From Escherichia coli (GTDB lineage Bacteria; Pseudomonadota; Gammaproteobacteria; Enterobacterales; Enterobacteriaceae): a stretch of 64,000 nucleotides of DNA. How positions within the stretch are numbered: the stretch's first letter is position 1; the number at the start of each line of letters is the position of its first letter. The position numbers were made by a program, and so were the translations under genes. The notes beneath the pieces were generated by a model. The model ran no database searches. It saw only the letters and a list, made by a program, of their open reading frames with translations, and was not told where the DNA came from. Location of the stretch: the NCBI RefSeq assembly GCF_044647545.1, contig NZ_CP172818.1. One strand, 5' to 3'. Below, piece by piece: positions 2,955 through 63,038 of the stretch.

Positions 2955-3716
2955 GTGATGTTGTCTGCTACTCAACCACTTAGCGAAAAATTGCCAGCGC
3001 ATGGCTGTCGTCATGTTGCGATCATTATGGACGGCAATGGTCGCTGGGCAAAAAAGCAAGGGAAGATTCGTGCCTTTGGGCATAAAGCCGGGGCAAAATC
3101 CGTCCGCCGGGCTGTCTCTTTTGCGGCCAACAACGGTATTGAGGCGTTAACTCTGTATGCCTTTAGTAGTGAAAACTGGAACCGACCAGCGCAGGAAGTC
3201 AGTGCGTTAATGGAACTGTTTGTGTGGGCGCTTGATAGCGAAGTAAAGAGTCTGCACCGACATAACGTGCGTCTGCGTATTATTGGCGATACCAGTCGCT
3301 TTAACTCGCGTTTGCAAGAACGTATTCGTAAATCTGAAGCGCTAACAGCCGGGAATACCGGTCTGACGCTGAATATTGCGGCGAACTACGGTGGACGTTG
3401 GGATATAGTCCAGGGAGTCAGGCAACTGGCTGAAAAGGTGCAGCAAGGAAACCTGCAACCAGATCAGATAGATGAAGAGATGCTAAACCAGCATGTCTGT
3501 ATGCATGAACTGGCCCCTGTAGATTTAGTAATTAGGACTGGGGGAGAGCATCGCATTAGTAACTTTTTGCTTTGGCAAATTGCCTATGCCGAACTTTACT
3601 TTACAGATGTTCTCTGGCCCGATTTCGATGAACAAGACTTTGAAGGGGCGTTAAATGCCTTTGCTAATCGAGAGCGTCGTTTCGGCGGCACCGAGCCCGG
3701 TGATGAAACAGCCTGA
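2955..3716 (+). CDS. ispU: undecaprenyl diphosphate synthase (GTG start)
   Basis: 253-aa ORF; HVAIIMDGNGRWA cis-prenyltransferase motif. Confidence 0.95.
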   Translation: MMLSATQPLSEKLPAHGCRHVAIIMDGNGRWAKKQGKIRAFGHKAGAKSVRRAVSFAANNGIEALTLYAFSSENWNRPAQEVSALMELFVWALDSEVKSLHRHNVRLRIIGDTSRFNSRLQERIRKSEALTAGNTGLTLNIAANYGGRWDIVQGVRQLAEKVQQGNLQPDQIDEEMLNQHVCMHELAPVDLVIRTGGEHRISNFLLWQIAYAELYFTDVLWPDFDEQDFEGALNAFANRERRFGGTEPGDETA

Positions 3717-3728
3717 TGGGGGTCGCTT

Positions 3729-4586
3729 TTGCTGAAGTATCGCCTGATATCTGCTTTTGTGTTAATACCCGTCGTCATCGCGGCGTTGTTTCTGTTGCCG
3801 CCGGTGGGGTTCGCCATTGTAACGCTGGTGGTCTGCATGCTGGCAGCGTGGGAATGGGGACAGCTTAGCGGTTTTACCACTCGTGCGCAGCGAGTATGGT
3901 TGGCGGTGTTATGTGGGTTATTGTTGGCGCTGATGCTTTTTCTGTTGCCGGAATATCACCGAAATATTCATCAACCGCTGGTTGAAATCTCACTTTGGGC
4001 TTCGCTGGGTTGGTGGATTGTCGCGCTATTGCTGGTGCTGTTTTACCCAGGTTCCGCAGCAATCTGGCGTAACTCTAAAACATTGCGCATTATTTTTGGC
4101 GTGCTAACCATTGTTCCCTTCTTCTGGGGCATGCTGGCGTTACGGGCCTGGCACTACGACGAGAATCATTACAGTGGCGCAATATGGCTGCTCTATGTCA
4201 TGATCCTGGTATGGGGCGCTGACTCTGGCGCATATATGTTTGGCAAATTGTTTGGTAAACATAAGCTGGCTCCGAAGGTTTCTCCGGGTAAAACCTGGCA
4301 AGGCTTTATCGGTGGACTCGCGACTGCAGCGGTAATCTCATGGGGTTATGGCATGTGGGCGAATCTCGACGTCGCTCCCGTCACCTTACTCATTTGCTCT
4401 ATTGTCGCAGCGTTAGCCTCAGTGCTCGGCGATCTGACCGAAAGTATGTTTAAGCGTGAAGCAGGAATTAAGGACAGCGGTCATTTAATTCCAGGACACG
4501 GTGGTATTTTAGATCGTATTGATAGCCTGACGGCTGCGGTACCGGTCTTTGCTTGCTTGTTGTTACTGGTATTCAGGACGCTTTAA
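3729..4586 (+). CDS. cdsA: CDP-diglyceride synthase (TTG start)
   Basis: 285-aa polytopic membrane ORF; conserved order uppS-cdsA-rseP. Confidence 0.9.
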
Positions 4587-5961: not shown

Positions 5962-8412
<2,451 letters not shown>

Positions 8413-8533
8413 GTGTTCTCCACAAAGGAATGTAGTGGTAGTGTAGCGATGACTTTAGGCGATCAATATAAGATCGCCGGGCCACGCAAAGAACTGCACC
8501 TTCCGGTGCAAATGGGATGGTAAGGAGTTTATT

Positions 8534-9019
8534 GTGAAAAAGTGGTTATTAGCGGCAGGTCTCGGTTTAGCACTGGCAACTTCTGCTCAGGCGGCTGACA
8601 AAATTGCAATCGTCAATATGGGCAGCCTGTTCCAGCAGGTAGCGCAGAAAACCGGTGTTTCTAACACGCTGGAAAATGAGTTCAAAGGCCGTGCCAGCGA
8701 ACTGCAGCGTATGGAAACCGATCTGCAGGCTAAAATGAAAAAGCTGCAGTCCATGAAAGCGGGCAGCGATCGCACTAAGCTGGAAAAAGACGTGATGGCT
8801 CAGCGCCAGACTTTTGCTCAGAAAGCGCAGGCTTTTGAGCAGGATCGCGCTCGTCGTTCCAACGAAGAACGTGGCAAACTGGTTACTCGTATCCAGACTG
8901 CTGTGAAATCCGTTGCCAACAGCCAGGATATCGATCTGGTTGTTGATGCAAACGCCGTTGCTTACAACAGCAGCGATGTAAAAGACATCACTGCTGACGT
9001 ACTGAAACAGGTTAAATAA
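8534..9019 (+). CDS. skp: periplasmic chaperone Skp (GTG start)
   Basis: 161-aa ORF with signal peptide [20 protein letters not shown]. Confidence 0.95.
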
Positions 9020-9022
9020 GTA

Positions 9023-10048
9023 ATGCCTTCAATTCGACTGGCTGATTTAGCGCAGCAGTTGGATGCAGAACTACACGGTGATGGCGATATCGTCATCACC
9101 GGCGTTGCGTCCATGCAATCTGCACAAACAGGTCACATTACGTTCATGGTTAACCCAAAATACCGTGAGCATTTAGGCTTGTGCCAGGCGTCCGCGGTTG
9201 TCATGACCCAGGACGATCTTCCTTTCGCGAAAAGTGCCGCGCTGGTAGTGAAGAATCCCTACCTGACTTACGCGCGCATGGCGCAAATTTTAGATACCAC
9301 GCCGCAGCCCGCGCAGAACATTGCACCCAGTGCAGTGATTGACGCGACGGCGAAGCTGGGTAACAACGTCTCAATTGGCGCTAACGCGGTGATTGAGTCC
9401 GGCGTTGAACTGGGCGATAACGTGATTATCGGTGCCGGTTGCTTCGTAGGTAAAAACAGCAAAATCGGTGCAGGTTCGCGTCTCTGGGCGAACGTAACCA
9501 TTTACCATGAGATCCAGATCGGTCAGAATTGCCTGATCCAGTCCGGAACAGTGGTAGGCGCAGACGGCTTTGGTTATGCCAACGATCGTGGTAACTGGGT
9601 GAAGATCCCGCAGATAGGTCGCGTAATTATTGGCGATCGCGTGGAGATCGGCGCATGTACTACCATCGATCGCGGTGCGCTGGATGACACTGTTATTGGC
9701 AATGGTGTGATCATTGATAACCAGTGCCAGATTGCACATAACGTCGTGATTGGCGACAATACGGCAGTTGCCGGTGGCGTCATTATGGCGGGCAGCCTGA
9801 AAATTGGTCGTTACTGCATGATCGGCGGAGCCAGCGTAATCAACGGGCATATGGAAATATGCGACAAAGTGACGGTTACGGGCATGGGTATGGTGATGCG
9901 TCCCATCACTGAACCAGGCGTCTATTCCTCAGGCATTCCGCTGCAACCCAACAAAGTCTGGCGCAAAACCGCTGCACTGGTGATGAACATTGATGACATG
10001 AGCAAGCGTCTGAAATCGCTTGAGCGCAAGGTTAATCAACAAGACTAA
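9023..10048 (+). CDS. lpxD: UDP-3-O-(3-hydroxymyristoyl)glucosamine N-acyltransferase
   Basis: 341-aa ORF; hexapeptide-repeat left-handed beta-helix. Confidence 0.95.
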
Positions 10049-10152
10049 CGTTCCATCTTTTGTTCGCCAAACTTTACGGCCTGTCTCATTCTTACGATTG
10101 CGGCAGGCCGTGTTATTATTGTCGTTTCTTATATTTTGACAGGAAGAGTATC

Positions 10153-10608
10153 TTGACTACTAACACTCATACTCTGCAGATTGAAGAGATTTTAGAACTT
10201 CTGCCGCACCGTTTCCCGTTCTTACTGGTGGATCGCGTGCTGGATTTTGAAGAAGGTCGTTTTCTGCGCGCAGTAAAAAATGTCTCTGTCAATGAGCCAT
10301 TCTTCCAGGGCCATTTCCCTGGAAAACCGATTTTCCCGGGTGTGCTGATTCTGGAAGCAATGGCACAGGCAACAGGTATTCTGGCGTTTAAAAGCGTAGG
10401 AAAACTGGAACCGGGTGAGCTGTACTACTTCGCCGGTATTGACGAAGCGCGCTTTAAGCGCCCGGTCGTGCCTGGCGATCAAATGATCATGGAAGTCACT
10501 TTCGAAAAAACGCGCCGCGGCCTGACCCGTTTTAAAGGGGTTGCTCTGGTCGACGGTAAAGTAGTTTGCGAAGCAACGATGATGTGTGCTCGTAGCCGGG
10601 AGGCCTGA
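10153..10608 (+). CDS. fabZ: 3-hydroxyacyl-ACP dehydratase FabZ (TTG start)
   Basis: 151 aa from TTG at 10153 ([22 protein letters not shown]...); track ORF extends further upstream. Confidence 0.9.
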
Positions 10609-10611
10609 TAC

Positions 10612-11400
10612 GTGATTGATAAATCCGCCTTTGTGCATCCAACCGCCATTGTGGAAGAGGGCGCGTCGATTGGCGCGAACGCTCACATTGGTCCTTTTTG
10701 TATCGTTGGACCCCATGTCGAAATTGGTGAGGGTACCGTACTGAAATCTCACGTTGTCGTGAATGGTCATACTAAAATTGGCCGCGATAATGAGATTTAT
10801 CAGTTCGCCTCCATCGGCGAAGTTAACCAGGATCTGAAATATGCTGGCGAACCGACCCGCGTGGAAATCGGCGATCGTAACCGCATTCGCGAAAGCGTCA
10901 CCATTCATCGTGGCACAGTCCAGGGCGGTGGATTGACGAAGGTGGGCAGCGACAACTTACTGATGATCAATGCGCACATTGCGCACGATTGTACGGTAGG
11001 TAACCGCTGCATCCTCGCCAACAACGCAACGCTGGCGGGTCACGTATCGGTTGACGACTTCGCGATCATCGGCGGCATGACCGCAGTCCATCAGTTCTGC
11101 ATCATTGGTGCGCATGTGATGGTTGGCGGCTGCTCCGGTGTGGCGCAGGACGTCCCTCCTTATGTCATTGCGCAGGGTAACCACGCAACGCCGTTCGGTG
11201 TCAATATCGAAGGGCTGAAGCGCCGCGGATTCAGCCGTGAGGCGATTACCGCTATCCGCAATGCGTATAAGCTGATTTATCGTAGCGGTAAAACGCTCGA
11301 TGAAGTGAAACCGGAAATTGCTGAACTGGCGGAAACATATCCGGAAGTGAAAGCCTTTACCGATTTCTTTGCACGCTCAACGCGCGGTCTGATTCGTTAA
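10612..11400 (+). CDS. lpxA: UDP-N-acetylglucosamine acyltransferase (GTG start)
   Basis: 262-aa hexapeptide-repeat [24 protein letters not shown]. Confidence 0.95.
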
Positions 11401-12548
11401 TGACTGAACAGCGTCCATTAACGATTGCCCTGGTCGCCGGAGAAACCTCCGGCGATATCCTGGGGGCCGGTTTAATCCGTGCTCTGAAAGAACGTGTGCC
11501 CAATGCCCGCTTTGTTGGTGTTGCCGGGCCACGAATGCAAGCCGAAGGCTGCGAAGCCTGGTACGAAATGGAAGAGCTGGCGGTGATGGGCATTGTTGAA
11601 GTGCTCGGGCGTCTGCGCCGCTTACTGCATATTCGTGCCGATCTGACAAAGCGTTTTGGCGAACTGAAGCCAGATGTTTTTGTCGGTATTGATGCGCCTG
11701 ACTTCAATATTACCCTTGAAGGTAACCTTAAAAAGCAGGGGATCAAAACCATTCATTATGTCAGCCCGTCCGTCTGGGCGTGGCGACAGAAACGCGTTTT
11801 CAAAATAGGCAGAGCCACCGATCTGGTGCTCGCATTTCTGCCTTTCGAAAAAGCGTTTTATGACAAATACAACGTACCGTGCCGCTTTATCGGTCATACC
11901 ATGGCTGATGCCATGCCATTAGATCCAGATAAAAATGGTGCCCGTGATGTGCTGGGGATCTCTCACGATGCCCACTGTCTGGCATTGTTGCCGGGCAGCC
12001 GTGGTGCAGAAGTCGAAATGCTTAGCGCCGATTTTCTGAAAACGGCCCAGCTTTTGCGCCAGACATATCCGGATCTCGAAATCGTGGTGCCGCTGGTGAA
12101 TGCCAAACGCCGCGAGCAGTTTGAACGCATCAAAGCTGAAGTTGCGCCAGACCTGTCGGTTCATATGCTGGATGGGTTGGGCCGTGAGGCGATGGTCGCC
12201 AGTGATGCGGCGCTACTGGCGTCGGGTACGGCAGCACTGGAGTGTATGCTGGCTAAATGCCCGATGGTAGTGGGATATCGCATGAAGCCTTTTACCTTCT
12301 GGCTGGCGAAGCGACTGGTGAAAACTGATTATGTCTCTCTACCCAATTTGCTGGCGGGCAGAGAGTTAGTCAAAGAGTTATTGCAGGAAGAGTGTGAGCC
12401 GCAAAAACTGGCTGCGGCGCTGTTACCGCTGTTGGCGAACGGGAAAACCAGCCACGCGATGCACGATACCTTCCGTGAACTGCATCAGCAGATCCGCTGC
12501 AATGCCGATGAGCAGGCGGCACAAGCCGTTCTGGAGTTAGCACAATGA
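11400..12548 (+). CDS. lpxB: lipid-A-disaccharide synthase
   Basis: 382-aa ORF; start overlaps lpxA stop by 1 nt. Confidence 0.95.
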
Positions 12549-13141
12549 TCGAATTTGTTTATCCGCACACGCAGCTGGTTGCGGGTGTGGATGAAGTCGG
12601 ACGCGGGCCGTTAGTTGGCGCGGTCGTCACCGCTGCAGTGATCCTTGACCCGTCGCGCCCGATTGCCGGGCTGAATGATTCCAAAAAGCTGAGCGAAAAA
12701 CGCCGTCTGGCGCTCTGCGAAGAGATCAAAGAGAAAGCGTTGAGCTGGAGTCTGGGCCGCGCGGAACCCCACGAAATCGACGAACTGAATATTTTACACG
12801 CGACCATGCTGGCGATGCAGCGTGCCGTCGCTGGGCTGCATATTGCGCCGGAATATGTGTTGATTGATGGTAACCGCTGCCCGAAATTACCGATGCCTGC
12901 GATGGCTGTGGTGAAAGGCGATAGCCGCGTACCGGAAATCAGTGCCGCGTCTATCCTGGCGAAAGTGACGCGTGACGCCGAAATGGCGGCGCTGGATATT
13001 GTTTTCCCGCAATATGGTTTTGCCCAACACAAAGGGTATCCAACCGCTTTTCATCTGGAAAAACTGGCTGAATATGGCGCGACTGAACATCATCGTCGCA
13101 GCTTTGGGCCTGTCAAACGCGCACTGGGACTTGCGTCCTGA
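12545..13141 (+). CDS. rnhB: ribonuclease HII
   Basis: 198-aa [13 protein letters not shown] catalytic motif; 4-nt overlap with lpxB. Confidence 0.95.
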
Positions 13142-13177
13142 TTCTTGTGTCGAGATTAAGTAAACCGGAATCTGAAG

Positions 13178-16100
13178 ATGTCTGAACCACGTTTCGTACA
13201 CCTGCGGGTGCACAGCGACTACTCGATGATCGATGGCCTGGCCAAAACCGCACCGCTGGTAAAAAAGGCGGCGGCGTTGGGTATGCCAGCACTGGCGATC
13301 ACCGATTTCACCAACCTTTGTGGTCTGGTGAAGTTCTACGGAGCGGGACATGGCGCAGGGATTAAGCCTATCGTCGGGGCAGATTTTAATGTCCAGTGTG
13401 ACCTGCTGGGTGATGAGTTAACCCACCTGACGGTGCTGGCGGCGAACAATACCGGCTATCAGAATCTGACGTTGCTGATCTCAAAAGCGTATCAGCGCGG
13501 GTACGGTGCCGCCGGGCCGATCATCGATCGCGACTGGCTTATCGAATTAAACGAAGGGTTGATCCTTCTTTCCGGCGGGCGCATGGGCGACGTTGGACGC
13601 AGTCTTTTGCGTGGTAACAGCGCGCTGGTAGATGAGTGTGTCGCGTTTTATGAAGAACACTTCCCGGATCGCTATTTTCTCGAGCTGATCCGCACCGGCA
13701 GGCCGGACGAAGAAAGCTATCTGCACGCGGCGGTGGAACTGGCGGAAGCGCGCGGTTTACCCGTCGTGGCGACCAACGACGTGCGCTTTATCGACAGCAG
13801 CGACTTTGACGCACACGAAATCCGCGTCGCGATCCACGACGGCTTTACCCTCGACGATCCTAAACGCCCGCGTAACTATTCGCCGCAGCAATATATGCGT
13901 AGCGAAGAGGAGATGTGTGAGCTGTTTGCCGACATCCCCGAAGCCCTTGCCAACACCGTTGAGATCGCCAAACGCTGTAACGTGACCGTGCGCCTTGGTG
14001 AATACTTCCTGCCGCAGTTCCCGACCGGGGACATGAGCACCGAAGATTATCTGGTCAAGCGTGCAAAAGAAGGCCTGGAAGAGCGTCTGGCCTTTTTATT
14101 CCCTGACGAGGAAGAACGTCTGAAGCGCCGCCCGGAATATGACGAGCGTCTGGAGACTGAACTTCAGGTTATCAACCAGATGGGCTTCCCGGGTTACTTC
14201 CTCATCGTTATGGAATTTATCCAGTGGTCGAAAGATAACGGCGTACCGGTAGGGCCAGGCCGTGGCTCCGGTGCGGGTTCACTGGTGGCCTACGCGCTGA
14301 AAATCACCGACCTCGATCCGCTGGAATTTGACCTGCTGTTCGAACGTTTCCTTAACCCGGAACGTGTCTCCATGCCTGACTTCGACGTTGACTTCTGTAT
14401 GGAGAAACGCGACCAGGTTATCGAACACGTCGCGGACATGTACGGTCGTGATGCGGTATCGCAGATTATCACCTTCGGTACGATGGCGGCGAAAGCGGTG
14501 ATCCGCGACGTAGGCCGCGTACTGGGGCATCCGTACGGCTTTGTCGACCGTATCTCGAAACTGATCCCGCCCGATCCGGGGATGACGCTGGCGAAAGCGT
14601 TTGAAGCCGAGCCGCAGCTGCCGGAAATCTACGAAGCGGATGAAGAAGTTAAGGCGCTGATCGACATGGCGCGCAAACTGGAAGGGGTCACCCGTAACGC
14701 CGGTAAGCACGCCGGTGGGGTGGTTATCGCACCGACCAAAATTACCGATTTTGCGCCGCTTTACTGCGATGAAGAGGGCAAACATCCAGTCACCCAGTTT
14801 GATAAAAGCGACGTTGAATACGCCGGACTGGTGAAGTTCGACTTCCTTGGTTTGCGTACGCTCACCATCATCAACTGGGCGCTGGAGATGATCAACAAGC
14901 GGCGGGCGAAGAATGGCGAGCCGCCGCTGGATATTGCCGCGATCCCGCTGGATGACAAGAAAAGCTTCGACATGCTGCAACGCTCGGAAACCACGGCGGT
15001 ATTCCAGCTTGAATCGCGCGGCATGAAGGACCTGATCAAGCGTCTGCAACCTGACTGCTTCGAAGATATGATCGCACTGGTGGCACTGTTCCGCCCCGGT
15101 CCGTTGCAATCAGGGATGGTGGATAACTTTATCGACCGTAAACATGGTCGCGAAGAGATCTCCTATCCGGACGTGCAGTGGCAGCATGAAAGCCTGAAAC
15201 CGGTACTGGAGCCAACCTACGGCATCATCCTGTATCAGGAACAGGTCATGCAGATTGCCCAGGTGCTTTCTGGTTATACCCTCGGTGGCGCGGATATGCT
15301 GCGTCGTGCGATGGGTAAGAAAAAGCCGGAAGAGATGGCTAAGCAGCGTTCTGTATTTGCTGAAGGTGCAGAAAAGAACGGAATCAACGCCGAACTGGCG
15401 ATGAAAATCTTCGACCTGGTGGAGAAATTCGCGGGTTACGGATTTAACAAATCGCACTCTGCGGCCTATGCTTTGGTGTCATATCAAACGTTATGGCTGA
15501 AAGCGCACTATCCGGCGGAGTTTATGGCGGCGGTAATGACCGCCGATATGGACAACACCGAGAAGGTGGTGGGCCTGGTGGATGAGTGCTGGCGGATGGG
15601 GCTGAAAATCCTACCGCCGGATATAAACTCCGGTCTTTACCATTTCCACGTCAACGACGACGGCGAAATCGTGTATGGTATTGGCGCGATCAAAGGGGTA
15701 GGTGAAGGCCCGATTGAGGCCATCATCGAAGCCCGCAATAAAGGCGGCTACTTCCGCGAACTGTTTGATCTCTGCGCCCGTACCGACACCAAAAAGTTAA
15801 ACCGGCGAGTGCTGGAAAAACTGATCATGTCCGGGGCGTTTGACCGTCTTGGGCCACACCGCGCGGCGCTGATGAACTCGCTGGGCGATGCGTTAAAAGC
15901 GGCAGATCAACACGCGAAAGCGGAAGCTATCGGTCAGGCCGATATGTTCGGCGTGCTGGCCGAAGAGCCGGAACAAATTGAACAATCCTACGCCAGCTGC
16001 CAACCGTGGCCGGAGCAGGTGGTGTTAGATGGGGAACGCGAAACGTTAGGTCTGTACCTCACGGGACACCCTATCAACCAGTATTTAAAAGAGATTGAGC

Positions 16101-21984: not shown

Positions 21985-22177
21985 TGACATAATCGCTCAC
22001 CAGTAAGTTTGCCGCAGCGTATGCTGCTTTTTCCCTGACAGCCTCAGAAAGGGCATCGTCGGCAGCCATTTCATTCAGCACTTTCAAAACGCAGCCCAGC
22101 GCGTCCGGAACGTATCCTAAGTCTCCGCTGGCGATTTCCGCGTACCGCTTGCGTATTAACTCACAATATTTTTCCAC
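21977..22177 (-). CDS. yaeP: small conserved protein YaeP (GTG start)
   Basis: 66 aa (M)[21 protein letters not shown]...; 8-nt overlap with rof start. Confidence 0.8.
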
Positions 22178-30838: not shown

Positions 30839-31411
30839 GTGGCGAAGAGCGTACCCGCAATTTTTCTTGACCGTGATGGCACCATTAATGTCGATCACGG
30901 CTATGTCCATGAGATCGACAACTTTGAATTTATCGACGGTGTTATTGACGCCATGCGCGAGCTAAAAAAAATGGGCTTTGCGCTGGTGGTAGTAACCAAC
31001 CAGTCTGGCATTGCTCGCGGTAAATTTACTGAAGCACAGTTTGAAACGCTGACCGAGTGGATGGACTGGTCGCTGGCGGACCGCGATGTCGATCTGGATG
31101 GTATCTATTATTGCCCGCATCATCCGCAGGGTAGTGTTGAAGAGTTTCGCCAGGTCTGCGACTGCCGCAAACCACATCCGGGGATGCTTTTATCGGCACG
31201 CGATTATTTGCATATTGATATGGCCGCTTCTTATATGGTGGGCGATAAATTAGAAGATATGCAGGCAGCGGCTGCGGCGAACGTGGGAACAAAAGTGCTG
31301 GTGCGTACGGGTAAACCTGTTACGCCTGAAGCAGAAAACGCGGCGGATTGGGTGTTAAATAGCCTGGCAGACCTGCCGCAAGCGATAAAAAAGCAGCAAA
31401 AACCGGCGTAA
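30839..31411 (+). CDS. gmhB: D,D-heptose 1,7-bisphosphate phosphatase (GTG start)
   Basis: 190-aa ORF; HAD motif FLDRDGTIN. Confidence 0.9.
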
Positions 31412-31776: not shown

Positions 31777-33318
<1,542 letters not shown>

Positions 33319-33386
33319 CCTTAAAGAAGCGTACTTTGCAGTGCTCACACAGATTGTCTGATGAAAATGAGCAGTAAAACCTCTAC

Positions 33387-33463
<77 letters not shown>

Positions 33464-33505
33464 AATTTGCACCGCAAATTTGAAGAGGTTTTAACTACAT
33501 GTTAT

Positions 33506-33581
33506 GGGGCTATAGCTCAGCTGGGAGAGCGCCTGCTTTGCACGCAGGAGGTCTGCGGTTCGATCCCGCATAGCTCCACCA
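33506..33581 (+). tRNA. alaV: tRNA-Ala (TGC)
   Basis: GGGGCTATAGCTCAGCTGGG...CTCCACCA, 76 nt. Confidence 0.95.
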
Positions 33582-33765
33582 TCTCTGTAGTGATTAAATA
33601 AAAAATACTTCAGAGTGTACCTGCAAAGGTTCACTGCGAAGTTTTGCTCTTTAAAAATCTGGATCAAGCTGAAAATTGAAACACTGAATAGCCGAAAGTT
33701 ATTCGTGAGTCTCTCAAATTTTCGCAACACGATGATGAATCGAAAGAAACATCTTCGGGTTGTGA

Positions 33766-36669
<2,904 letters not shown>

Positions 36670-36768
36670 ACAACGCCGAAGGTGTTTTGGCGGAAGAGAC
36701 ATCGACAAGTAAGCTTGATACAGATTAAATCGACAGGTCAGAACAGGACGTGTTGATAAAACAGAATT

Positions 36769-36888
36769 TGCCTGGCGGCCGTAGCGCGGTGGTCCCACCT
36801 GACCCCATGCCGAACTCAGAAGTGAAACGCCGTAGCGCCGATGGTAGTGTGGGGTCTCCCCATGCGAGAGTAGGGAACTGCCAGGCAT
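36769..36888 (+). rRNA. rrfH: 5S ribosomal RNA
   Basis: TGCCTGGCGGCCGTAGCGCGG ... AACTGCCAGGCAT; 120 nt. Confidence 0.97.
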
Positions 36889-36940
36889 CAAATTAAGCAG
36901 TAAGCCGGTCATAAAACCGGTGGTTGTAAAAGAATTCGGT

Positions 36941-37017
36941 GGAGCGGTAGTTCAGTCGGTTAGAATACCTGCCTGTCACGCAGGGGGTCGCGGGTTCGAG
37001 TCCCGTCCGTTCCGCCA
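36941..37017 (+). tRNA. aspU: tRNA-Asp (GTC)
   Basis: GGAGCGGTAGTTCAGTCGGTTAGAATACC...TCCGCCA, 77 nt, distal to 5S. Confidence 0.95.
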
Positions 37018-39083: not shown

Positions 39084-39935
<852 letters not shown>

Positions 39936-39938
39936 GGT

Positions 39939-40610
39939 ATGTCAGGTCTGCCACAGGGCAGACCAACGTTTGGCCCCCTTTAAAAAAAAAAAGACACCAA
40001 TACAACACAACAAAAAAAAAGCGCTGCGCAAAACGTGAGCGCGGTGGTGGCGTATGACTTATCTGCCCAAATGCTGGATGTCGTGGCACAAGCTGCCGAA
40101 GCCGGGCACCTGAAAAATATCGCCACCCGCCAGGGATATGCCGAAAGTCTGCCATTTGCCGATAACGCATTTGATATTGTTATCAGCCGTTATTCTGCCC
40201 ATCACTGGCATGATGTTGGTGCAGCACTGCGAGAAGTGAATAGGATATTGAAACCTGGCGGTAGGCTGATTGTGATGGACGTAATGTCTCCGGGTCACCC
40301 AGTGCGCGACGTCTGGTTACAGACGGTAGAAGCATTACGCGATACCTCTCACGTACGAAACTACGCCAGCGGTGAGTGGTTGACGTTAATCAATGAAGCC
40401 AATCTGATAGTTGATAATTTAATTACAGATAAGTTACCGCTGGAATTTTCTTCATGGGTCGCGAGAATGCGTACGCCAGAAGCGTTAGTAGACGCTATTC
40501 GCATTTACCAACAGAGCGCATCGACAGAGGTGAGAACGTATTTTGCCTTGCAGAATGACGGCTCTTTCACCAGTGATATCATCATGGTAGAAGCACATAA
40601 AGCGGCATAA
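39939..40610 (+). pseudogene. yafE: truncated/interrupted SAM-dependent methyltransferase
   Basis: ATG at 39939 is in frame with the methyltransferase body (GTG 40035 to stop 40610) but separated by a 48-nt A-rich tract with in-frame TAA (39981-39983); body lacks Gly-rich motif I. Confidence 0.7.
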
Positions 40611-47477: not shown

Positions 47478-48248
47478 TCACCACAACCTAAACTCATCCG
47501 CATCCCGCCATGCCGGAAACTTTTCTCTATATTCCCGCAATGCCACCATCGACAGCTCCGCATCAATGCGCGTTGCCTGATGCGCGTCGGCAGTAGCGAT
47601 AATCTCGCCCTGTGGATTAATCACCCTGCTGTCACCACGATAATGGCAGCCGTTGCCATCGCTGCCGACGCGATTGCATCCCGCCACATACGCCTGATTC
47701 TCAATCGCGCGGGCTGTCAGCAATGCCTGCCAGTGCAGAGAGCGCGGAGCAGGCCAGTTGGCGACGTACAGGGCGAGGTCATAATCGTTGAGATTGCGCG
47801 ACCACACAGGAAAACGTAAGTCGTAGCACACCAGCGGCAAAATACGCCAGCCGCGCCATTCCACAATCACTCGCGCATTGCCCGCTTTATAATGCAGATG
47901 CTCATCTGCCATGCGGAACAGATGACGCTTATCATAAAAATGTACCGTGCCGCCCGGCTCAACCAGCAAAAAGCGGTTAACCGAACCAGACTCCGTTTGT
48001 AATGCAACACTGCCTGCAATCAGCGCATTGCACTGCTGCGCCTTAGCTGTCATCCAGTTCACTACGTCATTTTGTGCTAGCGACGAAGCTGCCGCTTCCA
48101 TGGCAAAGCCGCTGGTAAACATCTCCGGTAGAACGATCACATCGCGCCCGGTAATACCTTCCAGTTGACGATCAAAATGGCGCAGGTTGGCAGGGCCATC
48201 CATCCACACCAGTGGTTGCTGCAAAAGCGTAATCTTCAAACCAGGCAC
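47478..48248 (-). CDS. yafV: omega-amidase / nitrilase-family hydrolase (GTG start)
   Basis: 256 aa (M)PGLKITLLQQPLVWMDGPANL; CN-hydrolase fold. Confidence 0.88.
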   Translation of the reverse strand: MPGLKITLLQQPLVWMDGPANLRHFDRQLEGITGRDVIVLPEMFTSGFAMEAAASSLAQNDVVNWMTAKAQQCNALIAGSVALQTESGSVNRFLLVEPGGTVHFYDKRHLFRMADEHLHYKAGNARVIVEWRGWRILPLVCYDLRFPVWSRNLNDYDLALYVANWPAPRSLHWQALLTARAIENQAYVAGCNRVGSDGNGCHYRGDSRVINPQGEIIATADAHQATRIDAELSMVALREYREKFPAWRDADEFRLW

Positions 48249-53924: not shown

Positions 53925-54203
53925 TTTACCCAAATAGCGCCGCGTGAGTTCCAGTTCTCTCAAATCGTAAAAGTTTATCGGTAAGTTTGTAAATCAGGAT
54001 CCAGTCCGGTTCGACATGAGCATCGCGATAACCTTTCCATGAACCTTGCAGCGGGTGGTCTTTATAAACAGCTGGAAGCAGTAAAGTATTATTGATAAGA
54101 GCGTCATAAGATATTTCAATTTATTCATATCCTTATGACGCTTTTGTGCAAGTTTTACATCCTTTGAAAATTGTCCCGAGTATTCAATATCCCTTTGAAT
54201 CAT
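53925..54203 (-). pseudogene. yafQ: YafQ mRNA-interferase toxin, frameshifted
   Basis: First 36 codons from ATG at 54203 match YafQ; frame breaks near 54094-54096; the +1 frame continues with ...YKDHPLQGSWKGYRDAHVEPDWILIYKL...FERTGTHAALFG to 53925. Confidence 0.8.
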
Positions 54204-54675: not shown

Positions 54676-55425
54676 ATGTCTTTGCCGTCGATTCCCTCTT
54701 TTGTGTTGTCGGGATTACTGTTGCTTTGCTTGCCGTTTTCTTCATTTGCCAGCGCCACCACATCACATATCTCTTTCAGCTACGCCGCCCGCCAGCGGAT
54801 GCAAAACCGTGCGCGTTTATTAAAACAGTACCAAACCCATCTGAAAAAACAGGCCAGCTATATTGTGGAAGGCAATGCCGAAAGCAGAAGGGCGCTACGC
54901 CAGCACAACCGGGAGCAGATAAAACAGCATCCAGAATGGTTTCCTGCGCCGCTCAAGGCGAGTGACAGACGCTGGCAGGCGCTGGCGGAAAACAACCACT
55001 TTTTAAGCAGCGATCACCTGCATAACATCACCGAAGTGGCGATTCACCGCCTGGAGCAGCAGCTTGGCAAGCCTTATGTCTGGGGCGGCACGCGGCCCGA
55101 TAAAGGCTTCGACTGTAGCGGGTTGGTTTTTTATGCCTACAACAAGATCCTTGAGGCGAAGCTCCCGCGCACAGCCAATGAGATGTATCACTACCATCGG
55201 GCAACGATTGTGGCGAACAACGACCTGCGCCGGGGAGATTTGCTGTTTTTCCATATTCACAGCCGCGAGATAGCCGATCATATGGGGGTGTATCTGGGAG
55301 ACGGTCAGTTTATCGAGTCACCACGTACCGGCGAAACCATTCGGATAAGCCGGTTAGCTGAACCTTTCTGGCAGGATCATTTTTTAGGCGCGCGGCGGAT
55401 TTTGACGGAAGAGACGATTTTGTAG
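54676..55425 (+). CDS. yafL: NlpC/P60-family putative peptidoglycan endopeptidase
   Basis: 249 aa from MSLPSIPSFVLSG; signal peptide; conserved Cys (DCSGLV) and His. Confidence 0.85.
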   Translation: MSLPSIPSFVLSGLLLLCLPFSSFASATTSHISFSYAARQRMQNRARLLKQYQTHLKKQASYIVEGNAESRRALRQHNREQIKQHPEWFPAPLKASDRRWQALAENNHFLSSDHLHNITEVAIHRLEQQLGKPYVWGGTRPDKGFDCSGLVFYAYNKILEAKLPRTANEMYHYHRATIVANNDLRRGDLLFFHIHSREIADHMGVYLGDGQFIESPRTGETIRISRLAEPFWQDHFLGARRILTEETIL

Positions 55426-57182
55426 GCAGGGATCTCCCCCACAACACTCAACGCCCCCATAATCTTCAACTCCAGCTCGTCCGGCACTTCGTTATACGAC
55501 AGCACATGCAGCCCCGGCGCAAACAATCTCGCATAGCGCGCCAGCAAAGGGCGCAACTGCGGTGGCACCAGCAGCACAGGGTCTTTCCCCGCCGCTTTCA
55601 TCTGCTCCTTCACCTGCGGCATCGTACTCTGGAACTGGTTGAGCATATTCGGGTCTACCGGCACGCTGTCGAGCATCACTTTGCCGGCCTGTTGCGCCTG
55701 ATTCACCACGTTGGTCAGCAGATTTTCCAGCTCATTATTCAGCGTATACACCGTCAGCTCCTGCTTGCGAACGAACGGATGGGTAATGCTGCGCCGCAGC
55801 GCCAGGCGCACATCTGCCGCCAGCAGAATATGATCTTTGGTCACCGCACTACTGGCGACCAGCACGGTGGCGATGGTGACGATATCGCGCAGGGAAACGC
55901 CTTCAGTCAGCAGCGCCCGGTACACTTTCAGCAACTGGCTGTAATTCAGCGCCGCGCTCAAATCCTCCGCCAGTCGCGGTGCCATCGACGACAGGCGGTT
56001 ATGCAACTGCGTAATATCGTCATAGTTAAATAAATCAGGAATATAGCTGCGCACAATCTTATTCACATGCGTGGCAATTACGCTGGCGCTGTCGATCACC
56101 TGATACCCCATATTCAGCGCCTTCGCTTTCTGCGCAGGCTGAATCCAGGTGACCGGCATCCCATATGCCGGGTCATTCCCCAGTACGCCGTCAATCTCGC
56201 CGTAGGTTTCGCTGGAGGGCAGGGCCATCAGTTTATCCGCCGGAATATCCGCTTCATCAGCCTTAATGCCGTTGATGAAAATGGCGTACTGGCTGGGCTT
56301 GAGACGGAAGTTTTCCCGAATACGGATCTCCGGCAGCAGCACGCCGTTACCGTCGGATATCACCTGCCGCACGCCGCGAATCCGCTGGGTGAGCGGGTTC
56401 CCCTGCGCTTTGTCCACCAGCGCCACCAGCTTGTAGCCGAGGCTTAAGCTGATGGGCTCGATCAGCGGAATGGTTTCCCAACTGACCTGTTGCTCGCTGG
56501 TTTCGGTGATGGTTCGGGTCAGCGTTTCGAGGCTTTTCTCCTCCGCCTCCGCCGCCTGCGGGCGTTTGCTCATCCGCCAGCCGGTAAAGCCAAGCAGGGC
56601 GCTGAACAGCAAAAATGGCAGATGCGGCATCCCCGGCACCACCGCCAGCACAAACATGATCCCGGTGGCGGTGTAGAGCACCGACGGACTTGCCAGCAGC
56701 TGGTGGCGCACGTCATGGGCGATATCGCCGTTGTCGCTGACGCGGGTGACGATAATTGCCGCCGCGGTGGAGAGCAGCAGGGACGGGATCTGCGCCACCA
56801 GCCCGTCGCCGATAGTCATCAGCACATATTGCTGGAAGGCGGCGTCGGCGCTCAGGTTGTATTTGAAGATCCCGATACAGACGCCGCCGATCAGGTTGAT
56901 CGCCAGAATCATCATCCCGGCGATGGCATCGCCGCGCACAAACTTCGATGCCCCGTCCATTGCGCCGTAGAAATCGGCCTCGCTGGCAACATCTTTACGC
57001 CGGGTTTGTGCCTGCGCCTGGTTGATCAATCCGGCGTTAAGATCGGCGTCAATCGCCATCTGTTTACCGGGCATCGCGTCCAGGGTAAAGCGGGCAGAAA
57101 CCTCGGAAATACGCTCGGCCCCTTTGGTGACGACGATAAAGTTGATTGTCAACAGCGTCAGTAAATCCGAGCGTGAAAGCAT
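55377..57182 (-). pseudogene. lfhA: FlhA-like flagellar export protein remnant (Flag-2 cluster), 5'-truncated
   Basis: About 600-aa ORF with FlhA-family similarity (…FVRGDAIAG…, C-terminal cytoplasmic domain) lacking the N-terminal TM region and a credible start. Confidence 0.8.
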
Positions 57183-57912
57183 TATCGCCGCGCTACACGG
57201 GCAGTCGATTTTTAACGGTGGCGGGCTGTCGCCGTTAAATAAAATCAGCCCGTCTCATCCGTCAAAACCTGCCACCGTGGCAGTGCCGGAAGAGACGGAG
57301 AAAAAAGCGCGCGACGTCAACGAGAAAACGGCGCTGCTGAAGAAGAAATCCGCCACCGAGCTTGGCGAGCTGGCGACCAGTATCAATACCATCGCCCGTG
57401 ATGCGCATATGGAAGCGAATCTGGAGATGGAGATTGTTCCCCAGGGATTACGCGTGCTGATTAAAGACGACCAGAACCGCAATATGTTCGAACGCGGCAG
57501 CGCACAGATTATGCCGTTCTTTAAAACTTTGCTGGTGGAGCTTGCGCCAGTGTTCGACTCGCTCGATAACAAAATTATTATTACCGGGCATACCGATGCG
57601 ATGGCCTACAAAAACAATATCTACAATAACTGGAACCTTTCGGGTGACCGCGCGCTTTCGGCTCGTCGGGCGCTGGAAGAGGCAGGAATGCCGGAAGATA
57701 AAGTGATGCAGGTGAGCGCAATGGCGGACCAGATGCTGCTGGACGCGAAAAATCCGCAAAGCGCGGGCAACCGGCGCATTGAGATTATGGTGCTGACTAA
57801 AAGCGCGTCCGATACGCTGTATCAATACTTTGGTCAGCATGGGGATAAAGTGGTGCAGCCGCTGGTGCAAAAGCTGGATAAGCAGCAGGTGCTTTCACAG
57901 CGAACGCGTTAA
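57157..57912 (+). pseudogene. lafU: MotB/OmpA-like flagellar motor protein remnant (Flag-2 cluster), 5'-truncated
   Basis: C-terminal OmpA-like domain (NWNLSGDRALSARRALEEAG...NRRIEIMVL); no N-terminal TM segment or start codon; 5' boundary approximate. Confidence 0.7.
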
Positions 57913-57948
57913 ATGCTGAATCTTTACGCATTTCTCAAACTCTGAAAT

Positions 57949-57968
57949 CACTGTATACTTTACCAGTG
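57949..57968 (+). promoter_or_regulatory. LexA operator (SOS box) of dinB
   Basis: CACTGTATACTTTACCAGTG about 15 nt upstream of the dinB start. Confidence 0.8.
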
Positions 57969-61580: not shown

Positions 61581-63038
61581 TTACTTCGCCGGAATTTCTT
61601 TCAGCAGTTCAGTCAGCAGTGTCCAGTAATGGCCTACGCTTTCGATGTGAACTTGCTCATCCGGAGAGTGTGGACCGGTGATTGTTGGCCCGATAGAAAC
61701 CATGTCCATTTCCGGATACGGTTTTTTGAACAGACCACATTCCAGGCCCGCGTGGATAATCTGGATGTTCGGCGTCTTGTTGAACAGACGCTGATAGGTT
61801 TCACGTACCAGATGCATCACCGGAGAATTAGCGTCCGGCTGCCAGCCAGGATATGCGCCTTTCGCTTCGGTTTTCGCGCCAGCCAGTTTACCCAGCGAAT
61901 CCAGCATGCTCACCACGTAGTCTTTACCGCTGTCGATCAGTGAACGGATCAGGCAGTGAATTTCTACGTTATTGTCAGTCATGGTCACCACACCGACGTT
62001 CAGGGAGGTTTCGACCACACCTTTTGCAACGTCGGAATTGCGGATCACACCGTTCGGGGTGGCGTTCAGCAGACGAATAAAGGTATCGCGAGATTTCGCA
62101 ATCAGGGCAGCTTTATCGTTCGCAACAGAGTCCAGCAGCAATGCCAGATTTTTCTCTTTCTCTGCCAGCTCGTTTTTCAGGATCTCCTGATAGGTATTCA
62201 CCAGAGATTTCAGTGTATCGACTTTATCAGCTGCGACAGCAATGGTCGCAAAGGCTTCACGCGGGATGGCGTTACGCAGTGTGCCGCCGTTGAAATCAAT
62301 AAGACGCAGGTCCAGTTCTTCTGCATGACCCGCCAGGAAGCGCACCAGCAGTTTGTTGGCATTACCCAGGCCAACGTGGATTTCACCGCCGGAGTGACCG
62401 CCTTTCAGACCTTTTAAGGTTAACTTGAAGGTTTCAAAACCAGCTGGAACCGCTTCACGATCTAAATGCAGGTTGGAGGTGAAGTCGATACCTCCCGCAC
62501 AACCCATGTAGATTTCACCTTCTTCTTCGGAGTCGGTGTTAATCAGAATATCAGCCTGCAACCAGTTGCTCTGTAAGCCAAAAGCACCGTCCATACCGGC
62601 TTCTTCGGTCATGGTCAGCAGCACTTCCAGCGGGCCGTGAACCACGTTTTCGTCAGCCAGAACCGCCAGTGCAGAGGCCATACCAATGCCGTTATCCGCA
62701 CCCAGCGTGGTGCCGCGTGCTTTAACCCATTCGCCATCAATATAAGGCTGGATAGGATCTTTAGTGAAGTCATGCACGGTGTCGTTATTTTTTTGCGGCA
62801 CCATATCGAGGTGGGCCTGCAAGACGACCGGTTTACGATTTTCCATACCTGCGGTAGCAGGTTTACGAATCAGGATATTACCTACCTGATCGCGTTCGAC
62901 ATGGAAACCTTTCTCTTTTGCCCAACCAACAATGTATTCAGCGAGTTGCTCTTCATGATAGGACGGGTGAGGAATAGAACAGATTTTGGCAAAAATATCC
63001 CACAGCGGCTGTGGAGATAATTGAGACAGTTCAGACAC
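61581..63038 (-). CDS. pepD: cytosol nonspecific dipeptidase (aminoacyl-histidine dipeptidase)
   Basis: 485-aa ORF MSELSQLSPQPLWDIFAKICSIPHPSYHEEQ; M20 family. Confidence 0.95.
   Translation of the reverse strand: MSELSQLSPQPLWDIFAKICSIPHPSYHEEQLAEYIVGWAKEKGFHVERDQVGNILIRKPATAGMENRKPVVLQAHLDMVPQKNNDTVHDFTKDPIQPYIDGEWVKARGTTLGADNGIGMASALAVLADENVVHGPLEVLLTMTEEAGMDGAFGLQSNWLQADILINTDSEEEGEIYMGCAGGIDFTSNLHLDREAVPAGFETFKLTLKGLKGGHSGGEIHVGLGNANKLLVRFLAGHAEELDLRLIDFNGGTLRNAIPREAFATIAVAADKVDTLKSLVNTYQEILKNELAEKEKNLALLLDSVANDKAALIAKSRDTFIRLLNATPNGVIRNSDVAKGVVETSLNVGVVTMTDNNVEIHCLIRSLIDSGKDYVVSMLDSLGKLAGAKTEAKGAYPGWQPDANSPVMHLVRETYQRLFNKTPNIQIIHAGLECGLFKKPYPEMDMVSIGPTITGPHSPDEQVHIESVGHYWTLLTELLKEIPAK

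Follow-up and report, generated by a model that had tools for sequence, protein, structure and literature searches.

Start codons and gene junctions of the fabZ–lpxA–lpxB–rnhB genes in a 64,000-nucleotide window of the Escherichia coli chromosome

The fabZ, lpxA, lpxB and rnhB genes of Escherichia coli lie in the lpxD–fabZ–lpxA–lpxB–rnhB–dnaE string, whose gene order, coding-sequence (CDS) lengths, start codons and junctions (a 3-nucleotide (nt) gap, followed by 1-nt and 4-nt overlaps) are documented in strain K-12 (b0179–b0184, NC_000913.3). Other described systems share single features with this arrangement. Overlaps of −4 and −1 are the commonest in prokaryotes, and co-directional gene pairs joined through ATGA or through TAATG and TGATG are tightly coupled by termination–reinitiation (Huber et al. 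2019, PMC6728339; PMC10666635). The essential lipid-synthesis gene cdsA starts with a TTG codon that is conserved among Gram-negative bacteria and has been read as keeping expression low, and the ATG version is toxic on induction (Hikage et al. 2024, PMC11448367). Tandem-start proteoforms have been described by TRAINSPOTTER N-terminomics (PMC13245402), a likeness that applies to only one gene considered below, ispU, with its GTG/ATG pair. Here we report an analysis of a 64,000-nt stretch of E. coli chromosome (contig NZ_CP172818.1; hereafter the window), centred on the start codons and junctions of the four genes at positions 10153–13141. This locus is very probably the same well-characterised string, with known starts, weak codons that would act as translation set-points, and coupled translation of lpxB and rnhB. 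The fabZ and lpxA starts and the two overlaps are real, were already annotated both in the curated K-12 record and by the NCBI pipeline, and are ordinary for a bacterial operon.

The window extends from pyrH through gpt, according to the record of the NCBI Prokaryotic Genome Annotation Pipeline (PGAP) for a strain that is 100% identical across positions 9900–13300 and the curated annotation of K-12 MG1655. Start codons were read off after all K-12 CDSs had been mapped onto the window by BLAST. The cluster genes share 96–99% nucleotide identity with their K-12 counterparts, from which they differ by strain-level substitutions only, with nothing structural inside 10153–13141. Positions 9900–13300, which cover lpxD, fabZ, lpxA, lpxB, rnhB and dnaE, have matches in 5,423 of 5,426 complete E. 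coli genomes (megablast), many of them 100% identical. For comparison between species, species-representative genomes were scanned with LpxA, which yielded 80 Enterobacteriaceae loci (LpxA 88–97% identical), and six further loci from other Enterobacterales were obtained via FabZ homologues; the sampling was confined to Enterobacterales. The initiation-profiling and peptide values are published data. Table S2 of the INRI-seq study (PMC9825163) lists retapamulin-arrested ribosome peaks at annotated K-12 starts in vitro and in vivo, the in vivo column being the Ribo-RET data of Meydan 2019, and the N-terminal peptides come from TRAINSPOTTER (PMC13245402).

Start codons and junctions from fabZ to rnhB

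All features of the cluster lie on the plus strand. The fabZ CDS (10153–10608; 151 amino acids (aa)) starts at TTG 10153–10155 and ends at TGA 10606–10608, in agreement with the K-12 and PGAP annotations. An earlier reading made from the sequence alone had placed the fabZ start at this TTG and the lpxA start at GTG 10612, and on both points the sequence, the two annotations and initiation profiling agree. The fabZ TTG corresponds to K-12 position 202101, where the INRI-seq score is 27–56 with signal in 5/5 replicates and the Ribo-RET value is 239.6 (PMC9825163, Table S2); in this strong peak fabZ differs from cdsA, for which no in vitro peak and only a weak in vivo peak are seen. The solved structure of E. 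coli FabZ (6N3P) begins MTTNTH. The TTG is preceded by the Shine–Dalgarno (SD) box ACAGGAAGAGTAT (10139–10151), whose core AGGAAG (10141–10146) lies 6 nt before it. Both elements are conserved. The TTG is kept in 77/77 Enterobacteriaceae, with tblastn alignments beginning at residue 1 on it, and the box is near-invariant in the same 77, the sole exception (L029) carrying ACAGGACCAGTAT; the box is also retained in Pectobacterium, Yersinia, Sodalis, Leminorella and Photorhabdus.

The lpxA CDS (10612–11400; 262 aa; K-12 and PGAP) extends from GTG 10612–10614 to TAA 11398–11400. Its start corresponds to K-12 position 202560, with an INRI-seq score of 11–21 in 5/5 replicates and a Ribo-RET value of 120.9, and the LpxA structure 1LXA comprises 262 residues that match positions 1–262, as expected from the GTG start. 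At the fabZ–lpxA junction (10598–10614), the lpxA SD sequence GGGAGG (10598–10603) lies inside fabZ, 8 nt upstream of the GTG, and is followed by the fabZ stop codon TGA (10606–10608), a 3-nt spacer and the GTG itself; its pairing with the anti-SD sequence is calculated at −10.3 kcal/mol. The spacer measures 3 nt in 77/77 and the lpxA start is GTG in 80/80 Enterobacteriaceae.

The remaining two junctions are overlaps, and their lengths, also given by the sequence-only reading, can be read directly from the sequence. At TAATG (11398–11402), A11400 is common to lpxA and lpxB, giving a 1-nt overlap, and at ATGA (12545–12548) lpxB and rnhB overlap by 4 nt. As in the K-12 and PGAP annotations, the lpxB CDS (11400–12548; 382 aa) runs from ATG 11400–11402 to TGA 12546–12548, and the rnhB CDS (12545–13141; 198 aa) starts at ATG 12545–12547. 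Among Enterobacteriaceae, the lpxA/lpxB overlap is −1 in 53/80 loci and 0 in 21/80, and the lpxB/rnhB overlap is −4 in 74 of the 78 loci scored; in the other four, the tblastn alignment on which the value is based falls short of residue 1, that of L020 being a misalignment. The −4 overlap also occurs in Yersinia, and in other Enterobacterales gaps of 2–23 nt replace overlaps.

The lpxB start has little SD pairing (−2.4 kcal/mol), whereas rnhB keeps a moderate GGAG (−5.9 kcal/mol) and its start gives a marginal signal of about 5 in INRI-seq and Ribo-RET. Because of the overlap geometry, the weak SD pairing and the absent or marginal initiation signals, termination–reinitiation is the most likely route for translation of lpxB and, in part, of rnhB. 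Unlike in the described pairs, dependence on upstream translation is predicted here.

These features can be combined into a mechanism. Ribosomes initiate, most likely independently, at the fabZ UUG, six bases past the invariant AGGAAG and after a 104-nt non-coding spacer, and initiate on lpxA at a GUG three bases past the fabZ stop, by means of the strong GGGAGG within fabZ. The lpxB and rnhB AUGs, which overlap the upstream stops (UAAUG and AUGA), would be used mainly through re-initiation by ribosomes terminating on the upstream gene. A weak start codon combined with a strong ribosome-binding site could thereby provide a hard-wired translation set-point, which may be needed as FabZ and LpxA compete for a common acyl-acyl carrier protein (ACP) substrate. 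The substrate shared by FabZ and LpxA is R-3-hydroxymyristoyl-ACP. We infer the coupling mechanism from the junctions, and the dosage rationale by analogy, from this shared-substrate biochemistry and the cdsA precedent. GTG and TTG starts give expression 8- to 12-fold below that of ATG (PMC11445065).

Starts of similar character occur elsewhere in the window. The starts of lpxD (9023), lpxB (11400), arfB (22885) and dnaE (13178) have zero signal in both INRI-seq and Ribo-RET. Three of them (lpxD, lpxB and arfB) are directly adjacent to the preceding stop codon or overlap it, and SD pairing is weak at each of the four, between −1.5 and −3.5 kcal/mol (arfB, −1.5 kcal/mol). Such zero-signal, SD-poor starts fit coupling-dependent translation.

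Conservation and selection of the weak start codons

The fabZ TTG (77/77) and the lpxA GTG (80/80) are unchanged, whereas in our neutral control, 412 four-fold degenerate sites compared over the same species, no more than 8 (1.9%) are invariant, which argues that both weak codons are maintained by selection across Enterobacteriaceae; a change in the first base alone would turn either codon into ATG. The combination of a TTG fabZ and a GTG lpxA is also found in Pectobacterium, Yersinia, Sodalis and Leminorella, and the order bamA–skp–lpxD–fabZ–lpxA–lpxB–rnhB–dnaE is retained in 5/6 of the other Enterobacterales loci, that of Arsenophonus (L090) having no rnhB. What the comparison adds to the existing annotation is that both weak start codons (TTG and GTG), the 3-nt spacing and the surroundings of the fabZ start are frozen in Enterobacteriaceae while neutral sites are saturated. 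This conservation supports selection on the FabZ and LpxA translation set-points and is relevant to work on how LpxC, FabZ and lipid A are kept in balance. Non-ATG genes of the window have stronger anti-SD pairing than ATG genes (mean −7.7 versus −5.0 kcal/mol, P=0.003), which is a known compensation.

Several observations weigh against this account or narrow its support. In two Morganellaceae, Photorhabdus (L087) and Arsenophonus (L090), with gene starts at 3001 and 3457/3470, fabZ and lpxA have both switched to ATG together; their fabZ ATG is displaced downstream by one codon relative to the position of the ancestral TTG, where Photorhabdus has TAG. Weak codons are thus not a universal requirement, and the comparison points to start codons that are old and maintained, yet not obligatory. 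The anti-SD pairing of fabZ is just −4.3 kcal/mol in the duplex calculation. The lpxB start has no signal in any INRI-seq replicate or in Ribo-RET (0 throughout), a result that low sensitivity could equally give. The published data have limits of their own. The Ribo-RET column of Table S2 is zero for every minus-strand gene and is uninformative on yafV, pepD, proS, rnhA and fadE, and INRI-seq transcripts begin at −30, which places initiation at the upstream TTG 10060 outside their reach. The sequence-only reading had proposed initiation profiling and N-terminal proteomics as checks. The former gave peaks at the annotated starts of fabZ, lpxA, rseP, rnhA, fadE, frr, skp, gmhB and yafD, whereas the latter bore out the starts in part: peptides from the frr, gmhB and ispU GTG codons are present, and the N-terminal peptides of FabZ and LpxA (b0180 and b0181) were not found in the TRAINSPOTTER tables, which represent one N-terminomics data set. 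The original descriptions of fabZ and lpxA reportedly included N-terminal sequencing.

Weak codons could also be clustered for a reason that concerns the whole region. From pyrH to rnhB, 6 of 13 genes have non-ATG starts, and this local run might be a selected property of an envelope-biogenesis cluster and not the outcome of chance. In K-12, about 17% of genes have non-ATG starts and about 3% start with TTG. The run has a nominal binomial P of 0.014 on its own, and skp, fabZ and lpxA hold their non-ATG codons family-wide; the cdsA study, moreover, argues for deliberately low expression (PMC11448367). However, the value rises to P=0.15 once corrected for window scanning, and the pyrH–rnhB grouping was picked after the data had been seen. 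The window as a whole is not enriched in non-ATG starts (11/56 versus the expected 17% or so, binomial P=0.35) or in TTG starts (2/56 versus about 3%, P=0.50), and in bacteria generally about 12% of starts are GTG and about 8% TTG (PMC11445065). In Morganellaceae, moreover, fabZ and lpxA both have ATG. Selection for the run as a unit is unlikely, and we retain selection on the individual fabZ and lpxA codons as the preferred reading.

Possible RNA elements and alternative initiation at fabZ

The sequence around the fabZ start contains two potential RNA structures. The lpxD–fabZ spacer holds a conserved hairpin, ACGGCCUG...CAGGCCGU, with a U-rich tract on its 3′ side (10076–10111, plus strand), scored as terminator-like by our scan. 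Its outer stem, CGGCCUG/CAGGCCG, pairs in 47/47 aligned Enterobacteriaceae, with one position alternating between U-A and U-G; the inner stem and the loop are variable. Compared with shuffled sequences, the region has a more favourable fold (z = −2.97); a covariation test over the 47 species met an invariant stem with zero compensatory changes and is thus uninformative either way. From its appearance, the element between lpxD and fabZ could be a terminator or attenuator, or else a hairpin that stabilises the mRNA. Across 8400–13300, the counts of sigma-70 promoter and terminator matches were the same as in shuffled sequence, and the sigma-70 scan gave no plus-strand promoter match inside the spacer, which, as a 104-bp segment, was employed as the native promoter in one study (PMC5785501). 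An Rfam scan of the whole window returned only the rRNAs and tRNAs of rrnH and StyR-44, with no known RNA family within the lipid A cluster.

The second structure is a possible hairpin (10145–10175, plus strand) that would present the start codon in its loop, AGAGUAU (10145–10151) pairing with AUACUCU (10169–10175) in fabZ codons 6–8. Neither arm varies among 78 Enterobacteriaceae sequences, which leaves no covariation to judge by, and 5–7 bp are retained in the six other Enterobacterales; the local minimum free energy is −5.5 kcal/mol. fabZ has three invariant four-fold sites, and they are located in codons 5, 7 and 8. On these grounds the fabZ initiation region might be a conserved cis-acting RNA, in which the UUG, the invariant box ACAGGAAGAGUAU and the synonymously invariant codons 5–8 would form a small hairpin with the start in its loop and, together with the spacer hairpin, would tune FabZ relative to LpxA and LpxC. 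We consider such a role improbable. The 10-mer CUCAUACUCU (10166–10175) is also the exact reverse complement of AGAGUAUGAG in the acpP initiation region (INRI-seq Table S5), a match that makes a trans interaction with acpP possible. In a separate observation upstream, third positions in the first 25 codons of lpxD (9023–9100) are unusually conserved over about 68 species, many at 100% versus 0.68 gene-wide, which suggests a putative RNA-level constraint at the skp–lpxD junction.

Near-cognate codons raise another alternative, that the non-ATG codons are each one of several functional starts and that fabZ also initiates at CTG 10174 or at ATT 10180 or 10189, as back-up or to produce proteoforms. 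The candidate starts near the fabZ N-terminus comprise only TTG 10060 and TTG 10153 and the downstream CTG, ATT and GTG codons, so that in-frame CTG and ATT codons are indeed present after the annotated start. In cdsA, the TTG works but is not the sole functional start: the CTG at codon 2 alone supports growth, fully replacing TTG at the chromosomal expression level, and the authors of that study note the near-cognate codons after the fabZ TTG (PMC11448367). ispU, too, has two N-termini. However, fabZ, lpxA and cdsA are all absent from INRI-seq Table S3, which lists non-annotated starts, and TRAINSPOTTER lists no alternative FabZ N-terminus. The TTG is also unchanged in 77 species, which argues for it as the codon in use. 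Additional fabZ starts are unlikely, and initiation at TTG 10153 remains our reading.

The longest open reading frame (ORF) would begin fabZ 31 codons further upstream, at TTG 10060 (extension 10060–10152, plus strand), giving a 182-aa protein in which the annotated TTG is merely an internal leucine; the frame is open from 10060 and extended FabZ entries from gene callers circulate publicly (P0002, 182 aa; P0007, 171 aa with 2370 members; P0026 from Yersinia, 196 aa). However, TTG 10060 has no SD-like sequence upstream, and in 46/77 species the frame offers no start codon before the conserved TTG. The spacer ranges over 99–240 nt, with length differences not divisible by 3, and translations of the extension from different species have nothing in common apart from the SD box, which appears in them as (D/N)RKSIL. 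None of the solved FabZ homologues can be aligned with the extension (residues 1–27 of the long ORF), the stretch contains the invariant hairpin, and the annotated TTG has the strong INRI-seq and Ribo-RET peak. The extension is non-coding, and the long-ORF reading is effectively refuted.

Over-extension of this kind is common in ORF calls. The sequence-only reading had stated that longest-frame callers misplace the starts of fabZ, rseP, proS, fadE and rnhA, and the mapping bears this out (+31, +15, +18, +26 and +24 codons, respectively), although the list was incomplete: gmhA (+54 codons), yafL (+20), yaeR (+9), yafS (+6), yaeP (+6) and yafJ (+5) are also over-extended, as are yafV, dnaQ and yaeF (+3 each). 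Both INRI-seq and Ribo-RET give a signal at the annotated rseP and gmhA starts, and INRI-seq does so in vitro at those of rnhA and fadE. The practical use of these results is thus as an annotation check, in that longest-ORF or ATG-preferring callers over-extend at least 15 of the 56 window genes. In public annotations and gene calls, over-extended FabZ is represented by L086 (3001–3591) and by P0002, P0005, P0007 and P0026. The TTG is read as an internal leucine in public FabZ entries with lengths of 171 (2,370 member sequences), 174, 182 and 196 aa, and the named Yersinia enterocolitica FabZ entries (196 aa) start at an upstream ATG and run through the SD box and the TTG.

Other non-ATG starts and strain differences in the window

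Outside the fabZ–rnhB cluster, the sequence-only reading had assigned GTG starts to frr, ispU, skp, gmhB, yafD and yafV and a TTG start to cdsA. All seven match K-12, and the K-12 mapping adds two that were missing from that list, the GTG starts of yaeP (22175–22177, minus strand) and pepD (63036–63038, minus strand). On the plus strand, the GTG starts of frr (924–926, as in K-12) and gmhB (30839–30841) are each backed by an N-terminal peptide and by INRI-seq and Ribo-RET signals. The skp GTG (8534–8536, plus strand) is positive in both profiling data sets, and among 74 species the skp start is GTG in 71, TTG in 3 and ATG in none. The yafD GTG (39135–39137, plus strand) is detected in 5/5 INRI-seq replicates and is positive in Ribo-RET. 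The yafV GTG (48246–48248, minus strand) follows from K-12 mapping and is without signal in INRI-seq Table S2, in which the Ribo-RET column is uninformative for this gene.

Two genes have a more complex start. At ispU, GTG 2955 and ATG 2958 stand in tandem (2955–2960, plus strand), K-12 being annotated from the GTG and PGAP from the ATG. TRAINSPOTTER detected both N-termini, MMLSATQ... from the GTG and MLSATQ... from the adjacent ATG, and the two annotations disagree because both occur. The annotated cdsA TTG (3729–3731, plus strand) is weakly positive in Ribo-RET and negative in INRI-seq; changing it to ATG was lethal when expression was induced (PMC11448367).

The window also differs from K-12 at several loci. 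The pyrH–frr spacer (779–923) measures 145 nt here and 291 nt in K-12, and K-12 therefore carries a 146-nt insertion. Around 39990–40039, an A-rich insertion of about 50 nt relative to K-12 breaks off the K-12-type 5′ end of yafE 14 codons in; an ORF resumes with GTG at 40035, and PGAP has a longer methyltransferase gene in the related strain. The yafQ gene (53994–54203, minus strand), encoding the toxin of dinJ–yafQ, is frameshifted around codon 36 and ends after 69 codons, compared with 92 in K-12; in this strain the toxin gene has probably been inactivated. Around 55400–57950, K-12 rayT (yafM) is missing, with no match anywhere in the window, and the K-12 counterpart of a 601-aa ORF at 55377–57182 (minus strand) is the flhA-like lfhA, a pseudogene in that strain. 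The rrnH operon (31777–37014) comprises 16S rRNA, tRNA-Ile, tRNA-Ala, 23S rRNA, 5S rRNA and tRNA-Asp, and the Rfam StyR-44 match (33649–33758) lies directly upstream of the 23S rRNA (33766–36669).

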